From positions 73,842,001 to 73,906,000 of the forward strand of contig OZ024747.1 of NCBI GenBank assembly GCA_964016885.1: a stretch of 64,000 nt of DNA. Direction: 5' to 3'. The notes under the pieces were generated by a model. The model saw only the letters and a list, made by a program, of their open reading frames with translations. It was not told the DNA's origin and searched no databases. Shown in pieces: positions 4,665-4,899 of this stretch; the stretch's first letter is position 1; each line of letters starts with the position of its first letter. Position numbers and translations under genes: made by a program. This DNA comes from Eledone cirrhosa (lineage: Eukaryota).

Positions 4665-4675
4665 ATATATCCCCA

Positions 4676-4718
4676 GTCACTGAAGAAGTCACAGAATGTG
4701 TGACGAAAGAACTTTGAC
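4676..4718 (+). ncRNA. Minimal type I hammerhead ribozyme motif
   Basis: Stem I GTCA/TGAC; core CTGAAGA plus an extra A; stem II GTCACA-gaatg-TGTGAC; GAAA; 2-bp stem III AG-aa-CT; cleavage triplet CTT. Lies at the 5' end of a ~190-bp island between (TA)n tracts with a downstream AATAAA. Confidence 0.6.
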
Positions 4719-4853
4719 AATATATGAAGAATCGTCTGGTTGTGGAACCAACCAACCAGCCGGAAACTTTTAAATTCCTAAATTTATAATAAATTGAAGT
4801 GAAAGCAGCTGGTGCGTGTCTTTCTTATTGGCAACATGACCCTCCCAAAGCAT

Positions 4854-4899
<46 letters not shown>

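Follow-up and report, generated by a model that had tools for sequence, protein, structure and literature searches.

Minimal type I hammerhead ribozymes were reported in the pLTRs of metazoan Penelope-like elements (PLEs) by Cervera and de la Pena (2014, PMC4209133), whose account stresses the variability of these motifs within a genome. In a coral, 16 hammerhead families were counted (PMC7229834), and many such families per genome are thus already in print. Canonical PLEs whose GIY-YIG endonuclease (EN) is C-terminal were compared by Craig et al. (2021, PMC8557442). In addition, Penelope possesses an internal LINE-like promoter (PMC2377424), and the Poseidon element PAc of Anolis carolinensis has a protein-assisted hammerhead that was dispensable for insertion in vitro (Frangieh et al. 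2024, PMC11167929). For O. vulgaris, passages of a paper on its repeats (PMC13282606) list Penelope-like families without ribozyme detail.

In our study, a stretch of 64,000 nucleotides of Eledone cirrhosa (the window) was analyzed. A sequence-only reading had placed an island of about 190 bp between (TA)n tracts, ending about 35 bp from a neighboring PLE, and this arrangement was confirmed. The island occupies 4671-4860 on the plus strand, the left tract, its likely target, lies at 4542-4670, the tract common to the island and the neighboring element lies at 4858-4894, and the neighbor begins at 4895. The same reading proposed a search for an autonomous PLE with this sequence in its pLTR, and one was found. 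In L055, a full unit of pLTR, ORF and pLTR whose same-strand hammerheads lie 4,017 bp from each other, the terminal repeat shared 94% identity with the island over 193 nt. The island is a pLTR copy of this PLE family (family A) that lacks its 5' part; it begins 9-10 nt upstream of the hammerhead core, and its other end coincides with the family's short 3' end. A first look at the genome (3.0 Gb) gave 2,204 candidates. All 40 matches scored were 93-100% identical, one being the window itself, and nearly all of the 29 other top matches ran on upstream with common sequence. The island is therefore very probably the 5'-truncated terminal repeat of a 4-kb protein-coding PLE, likely inserted into (TA)n by the element's own endonuclease and reverse transcriptase (RT), and its hammerhead is predicted to be near-inactive as a lone copy. 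Because the target-site duplication is unreadable inside (TA)n, a later deletion of upstream sequence might also account for the short copy. The island itself is ordinary, one of thousands of truncated PLE ends with a published ribozyme type.

An AATAAA followed by a tail had been noted in the island. The AATAAA is present inside the pLTR at 4788-4793 on the plus strand, 48 nt upstream of an ATG; it is a putative polyadenylation signal, and copies reach about 70 or about 130 nt past it. The supposed tail, however, holds the likely start codon and first eight codons (MTLPKHNN) of the PLE ORF (4836-4859, plus strand), in a frame that is open where the pLTR runs into the element. In L059 this frame ran on for 224 codons and in L069 for 160; it was broken earlier in three other copies and lacked the start in one. 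Since it is long where the repeat enters the element, the tail is best read as 5' UTR plus the first codons. The island copy had no poly(A) tail, and its end passes straight into (TA)n; a poly(A)-tailed SINE was ruled out by the absent A tail together with the ORF start inside the island.

Toward their upstream side, pLTR copies ran on across a 3' UTR of about 200 nt and then entered an ORF that ends in GIY-YIG and has the RT before it, as in the canonical C-terminal EN+ PLEs with one ORF (PMC8557442). Four loci (L008, L009, L019 and L029) reached the GIY-YIG ORF, and in L036 a single open frame of 421 aa spanned RT motif C through the EN. A fully intact ORF was found in no fetched copy. Pfam matches to GIY-YIG (E 2e-4) and to RVT_1 (E 0.0075) did not reach the curated cut-offs; at E <= 0.01 Pfam gave nothing for seven homologues or L036, and L053 had a sub-threshold RVT_1 only. 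A PDB sequence search with the RT/EN profile produced just two weak bacterial RT matches, and one protein homologue came from Octopus bimaculoides.

The EN motifs of family A were nearest to those of Neptune in PMC8557442: the linker CIDKKCIIC (CX4CxxC) and C..C..H..H around VYS..YIG correspond to the CX2-5CxxC and CCHH of that clade. Family A had neither the CxCX5C linker, the CCHH absence nor the DKT of the Hydra clade. It also differed from the two Neptune rows compared, in that the RT3-RT4 (fingers) spacing was not short and DKS replaced DKG, as in 49 of the 52 long homologues. Unlike in Naiad and Chlamys, no N-terminal GIY-YIG was seen: an EN motif preceded the RT in 0 of the 52 long homologues, and a strict pattern placed it after the RT in 31 of them.

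The distance from the motif A Asp to the motif B Gln of the parent RT was 128 aa. Spacings of 122-134 aa were found in scorable homologues, with counts of 31/85 and, for the long ones, 46/52 (six of the 52 were not scorable). By hand counts from Fig. S1 of PMC8557442, the same distance is 57-58 in Penelope and zebrafish Neptune, 81 in Naiad-Amil, 119 in Chlamys-1_tObl and 115 in human TERT, and that paper reports such an insertion only for elements with an N-terminal EN. The insert of family A carries a conserved CPxR..GR.P..T..RW motif. An RT model (pLDDT 79.5) had telomerase RTs as its best structural matches (Z 13-15, rmsd 3.7-8.9). The fold search confirms a telomerase-like RT, as would be expected for any PLE; the resemblance of the insert to the telomerase IFD is one of size. 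Among the largely open-access papers searched, none described in its title or abstract a PLE that combines such an insert with a C-terminal EN, and a term search of the PMC8557442 supplement gave 0 matches for GGAIG and VWWD.

The abundance and the ends of family A copies were examined. A 35-nt core of the island had 5,919 exact matches in the genome and its reversed control had 0, while a downstream 30-mer common to sister subfamilies had 24,161. The first sample consisted of 60 of the first 100 core matches listed on contig C1 (L097-L156), a few adjacent partner arms being skipped; the second consisted of 60 copies anchored on the 3' end and partly overlapped the first. The core-bearing copies extended from 10 to more than 1,500 nt upstream. 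More than half (32/60) passed the stop codon about 203 nt upstream and entered the ORF, 23 extended no more than 100 nt upstream of the core, and one was as short as the window copy (<=20 nt). An adjacent inverted arm occurred at the 5' end in 32 of the 60. The 3' ends fell at +179 in 32 copies (short), at +238 in 25 (long) and elsewhere in three. The two fixed ends are 59 nt apart, both between AATAT and CG, about 23 and about 82 nt into the ORF. Read by eye, (TA)n followed 57 of the 60 core-bearing copies; a strict TA pattern, which undercounts relative to this, gave 38 and 42 of 60.

These features resembled those of the PLEs in PMC8557442, namely partial tandems, inverted truncated arms, an optional tail, a bias to TA microsatellites and a canonical hammerhead, with the difference that the family A tail is 59 bp rather than 30-40. 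Family A was also similar to PAc (PMC11167929), in which two internal RT starts inside the ORF yield copies with and without a tail and the target is AT-rich. However, the PAc ORF starts inside the ribozyme, whereas the family A ATG lies 156 nt after the core; moreover, the PAc start site is not homologous to the target, whereas the AATAT ends of family A match (TA)n over four bases.

Several further copies were observed. The start base of the window copy (-10; window 4670), just upstream of stem I, is also that of L152, L196 and L199 and forms a minor hotspot. L199, also of family A, has several A-to-G substitutions across stem I and the core, a pattern like that of ADAR-type editing. An older fragment related to the 3' end of family A, 79% identical over 78 nt, lies in the window at 57221-57298 on the minus strand.

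The 5' ends of the first sample were not evenly spread: 17 of 60 lay 55-77 nt upstream of the core, compared with 1.4 expected (Poisson P 3e-13), and 5 of 60 did so in the overlapping second sample. Beside this pile-up, at -60, the motif AAGATGGC was found, which resembles the YY1 site near the L1 start. The pile-up is likely the 5' end of the RNA and a candidate transcription start. A refinement of the preferred explanation, as to which of the two pLTRs was copied, is that the RT began at the upstream pLTR/ORF junction of a transcript whose start lies about 70 nt upstream of the core, and that the island is a complete or nearly complete cDNA of the mRNA's front end. The clustered ends and the AAGATGGC motif agree with it, as do L123, which jumps from ORF-start sequence to -68, and the internal promoter of Penelope (PMC2377424). 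Nevertheless, the window copy stops at -10 and not at -55 to -77, so truncation is needed either way, and the sequence around the hotspot is CA-rich and of low complexity, in which breaks in the alignment or template switching could also pile up. We regard this refinement as a little short of evenly balanced. The wider proposal, that the parent is an undescribed, widespread PLE lineage which joins a telomerase-sized A-B insert to a C-terminal GIY-YIG and a canonical hammerhead, and that the abundant 250/310-bp copies are whole mRNA front-end cDNAs, is offered tentatively from sequence comparison, as conceivable rather than probable.

The hammerhead was predicted to adopt a minimal type I fold at 4676-4718 on the plus strand. 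All sequence statements made earlier about it (stem I, CUGAAGA, a 6-bp stem II, a short stem III and CUU) held. Stem I is formed by GTCA at 4676-4679 with TGAC at 4715-4718 (4 bp), the core CTGAAGA lies at 4680-4686 and GAAA at 4705-4708, and stem II pairs GTCACA at 4688-4693 with TGTGAC at 4699-4704 around a 5-nt loop. Helix III has only two pairs, A4708-T4713 and G4709-C4712, around a 2-nt AA loop, with the CUU triplet at 4712-4714; from the NUH rule the cut site is predicted between 4714 and 4715. The extra A described before is present at 4687, the unpaired position between A9 and G10.1, but it is a variant of the window copy: among 78 aligned family A stretches, a few overlapping loci being counted twice, this base was G in 72, A in four and other in two. 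RNAfold, which had been suggested as a check, gave pair probabilities of 0.87-1.0 for stems I and II and of no more than 0.001 for helix III.

As in the hammerheads of PMC4209133, family A had a short helix I of 4 bp, a long helix II of 6 bp, an unpaired base after A9, a G10.1-C11.1 pair and a tiny helix III. In the same 78 stretches the CUGANGA/GAAA core, with its UH, was kept, as a family consensus ought to show, and its columns were 98% invariant. Core and stems varied by 1.9% and 1.5%, about half of the 3.0-3.6% in the flanks (duplicates and subfamily variants included), which suggests that the fold matters to the source elements. There were no compensatory stem changes within family A, and the support for the fold consists of invariance plus folding. 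Separately, a candidate Penelope-type intron of 49 nt, purine-rich, ends at the AG before stem I.

Minimal hammerheads of this kind are modeled to act as dimers (PMC4209133), and the ribozyme could accordingly be an active processing site between tandem pLTRs 4 kb apart that releases unit-length or circular RNA. The full unit L055 does have two same-strand hammerheads, and sister subfamilies with different loops 2 and 3 and a different position 17 retain core and stems (38/60 copies readable); furthermore, dimeric minimal hammerheads were cleaved at a low but detectable level in PMC4209133. The loop itself argues against it. Although G15.2 and C16.2 are complementary, loop 3 was AA or GA, non-palindromic, in all 38 readable copies, different from the hammerheads of PMC4209133; the 15.2-16.2 stretch was GAAC or GGAC and position 17 was U or A (38/60 copies readable, 3'-anchored sample). 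A palindromic GTAC was seen among family A copies only in L004 and L005 of the 96 loci fetched. The AGAACU self-duplex, the dimer helix, had +1.4 kcal/mol, compared with -5 to -8 for palindromic controls. In addition, the dominant subfamily has a CUU triplet, another departure from the hammerheads of PMC4209133, and thus U17. No same-strand partner ribozyme of family A was found in the 64-kb window, which leaves the window copy alone. U17 is the weakest NUH base. Because loop 3 is not palindromic, the dimer helix energy is positive and the window holds no same-strand partner, dimer cleavage by the island hammerhead appears doubtful.

The ends of the copies pointed the same way. None of the 60 3'-anchored copies had its 5' end at the cut site (+35), the nearest being +17 and +40, and 17 of them had 5' ends between core and anchor; cleavage-defined 5' ends were ruled out by this result. 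Ribozyme mutants also left in vitro insertion unaffected in PMC11167929. We consider dimer processing unlikely for these reasons, and a ribozyme that is weak, protein-assisted, kept in source elements and idle in the lone window copy is most likely.

The island had been called a second, unrelated mini element. It is unrelated in sequence to the adjacent PLE. It represents, however, a truncated PLE end rather than a mini element of its own, and the short copies lack diagnostic variants. A separate non-autonomous hammerhead mini element, either SINE-like or a retrozyme monomer, would have its own master copy and be mobilized by the PLE in trans. The 23 of 60 copies that reach no more than 100 nt upstream of the core, with no coding sequence there, and the three copies that share the window copy's start base would fit it. 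However, short copies were 92.1% alike among themselves and 93.4% identical to long copies, 0 of 59 variable columns separated short from long (best Fisher P 0.04, uncorrected), and only one in 60 was as short as the window copy. A strict pattern, run over the 1.9 kb fetched, also detected no second same-strand hammerhead in any of the 60 copies, and the two closest matches to the window copy among the 60 extend into the ORF. A short class exists, but since its members show no diagnostic variants and resemble long copies at least as much as one another, there is no separate short family on these sequences. Metazoan non-LTR retrozymes (PMC7229834; bioRxiv 10.64898/2026.07.22.740005) are likewise short, non-coding and PLE-related, with a type I hammerhead. 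They are head-to-tail non-coding repeats, whereas family A is coding, its short copies are solo or inverted and 32 of 60 reach the ORF. The mini-element reading is largely refuted for family A, and we hold it to be highly improbable.

A chance match to the hammerhead pattern has next to no probability and was already refuted by position and conservation: of the 147 Rfam matches found in the window at E <= 1, 0 were hammerheads and no covariation was seen, yet the type I descriptor found only two sites in the window, 4680 and 49483, against 0.05 per window in block-wise dinucleotide shuffles, a site this good (stem II >=6 bp) arose in only 1 of 100 shuffles, the pLTR position is that published for PLE hammerheads, and the published extra base and G10.1-C11.1 pair are present.

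Other elements share the surroundings of the island. The adjacent PLE (4895-7763) is a Hydra-like end of a different family, with an inverted arm at 4895-6158 that has a 127-bp tail and a direct arm at 6148-7763. Its EN has a CxCX5C linker, CxxC and CxH and no CCHH, as described for Hydra in PMC8557442. The island was rejected as part of this element because no DNA match exceeded 14 nt and the EN was only 27% identical over 51 aa to that of family A. In this neighbor (7660-7730, 5055-5140), a GAAAC-GGTC-GTA half core was observed in 11 of the 12 copies shown, one inner base differing in one; no CUGANGA was seen upstream of the half core, and it is possibly a variant or rearranged ribozyme.

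An old hammerhead-bearing unit of about 350 bp and of a different, retrozyme-like family lies at 4190-4545 on the plus strand, with a mutated core (CTCATGA). Its relatives were 71-80% identical, the CTGATGA...GAAA core was kept in four of seven fetched, and several were partial tandems. These relatives have a 7-bp stem I and a palindromic ATCGAT-type loop, and the partial tandems suggest a retrozyme. The unit appears to fit the retrozyme class better than family A does.

The ribozyme at 49477 belongs to a third family. In agreement with the earlier statement that the two ribozymes share no similarity, blastn (word 7, E <= 10) of the island against the 49477 region gave no match. The hammerhead there (window 49465-49611) is the truncated end of a larger family with 749 candidates, whose copies extend at least 450 nt upstream, often with inverted arms. 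It has a longer helix III and could fold as a monomer.

Several independent hammerhead families had been suggested for the same (TA)n niche, and about 15 hammerhead sequence types were distinguished by eye in the 96 fetched loci. This pattern is already published: in PMC4209133 too, the motifs are mostly solo copies from truncated PLEs, with many unrelated families per genome. L065, L067, L074 and L087 are U3-A8 core variant hammerheads (TTGATAA, TTGAAAA), a type described for Schistosoma PLEs. The window also holds broken LINE-type reverse transcriptase ORFs at 33577-35751 and long minisatellite arrays at 9978-12120, 50027-55538 and 60664-62636, with periods of 32, 27 and 28 bp, respectively.

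For the preferred reading, a truncated family A terminal repeat, insertion is likely to have proceeded as follows. By analogy with Anolis Poseidon (PMC11167929), the GIY-YIG endonuclease would nick the TA tract, and the RT would begin within the RNA, at either of two positions shortly beyond the start codon. Because both family ends lie at the AATAT/CG junction, a few bases of AATAT pairing with the (TA)n target may help priming. For the window copy, the short site would have been used and 190 nt copied through the uncut ribozyme, with a stop 10 nt beyond the core. The ribozyme would be a passenger; in the parent RNA it may cut weakly with protein help, and cut RNA would not be a main template for insertion. 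Transcripts that start at -55 to -77, with the RT copying the front pLTR to its end, would account for the pile-up there.

The family A insertions bear no trace of cut RNA as template, which favors a weak, protein-assisted or dispensable ribozyme, and the loop expected to drive dimer cleavage is not self-complementary, which points in the same direction. Should the RT insert mark a new lineage, the story of PLEs and telomerase would gain a group in which a C-terminal endonuclease occurs together with a fingers insertion of telomerase size. Moreover, front-end cDNA copies, if true, would explain PLE ribozyme "mini elements" without a non-autonomous master.
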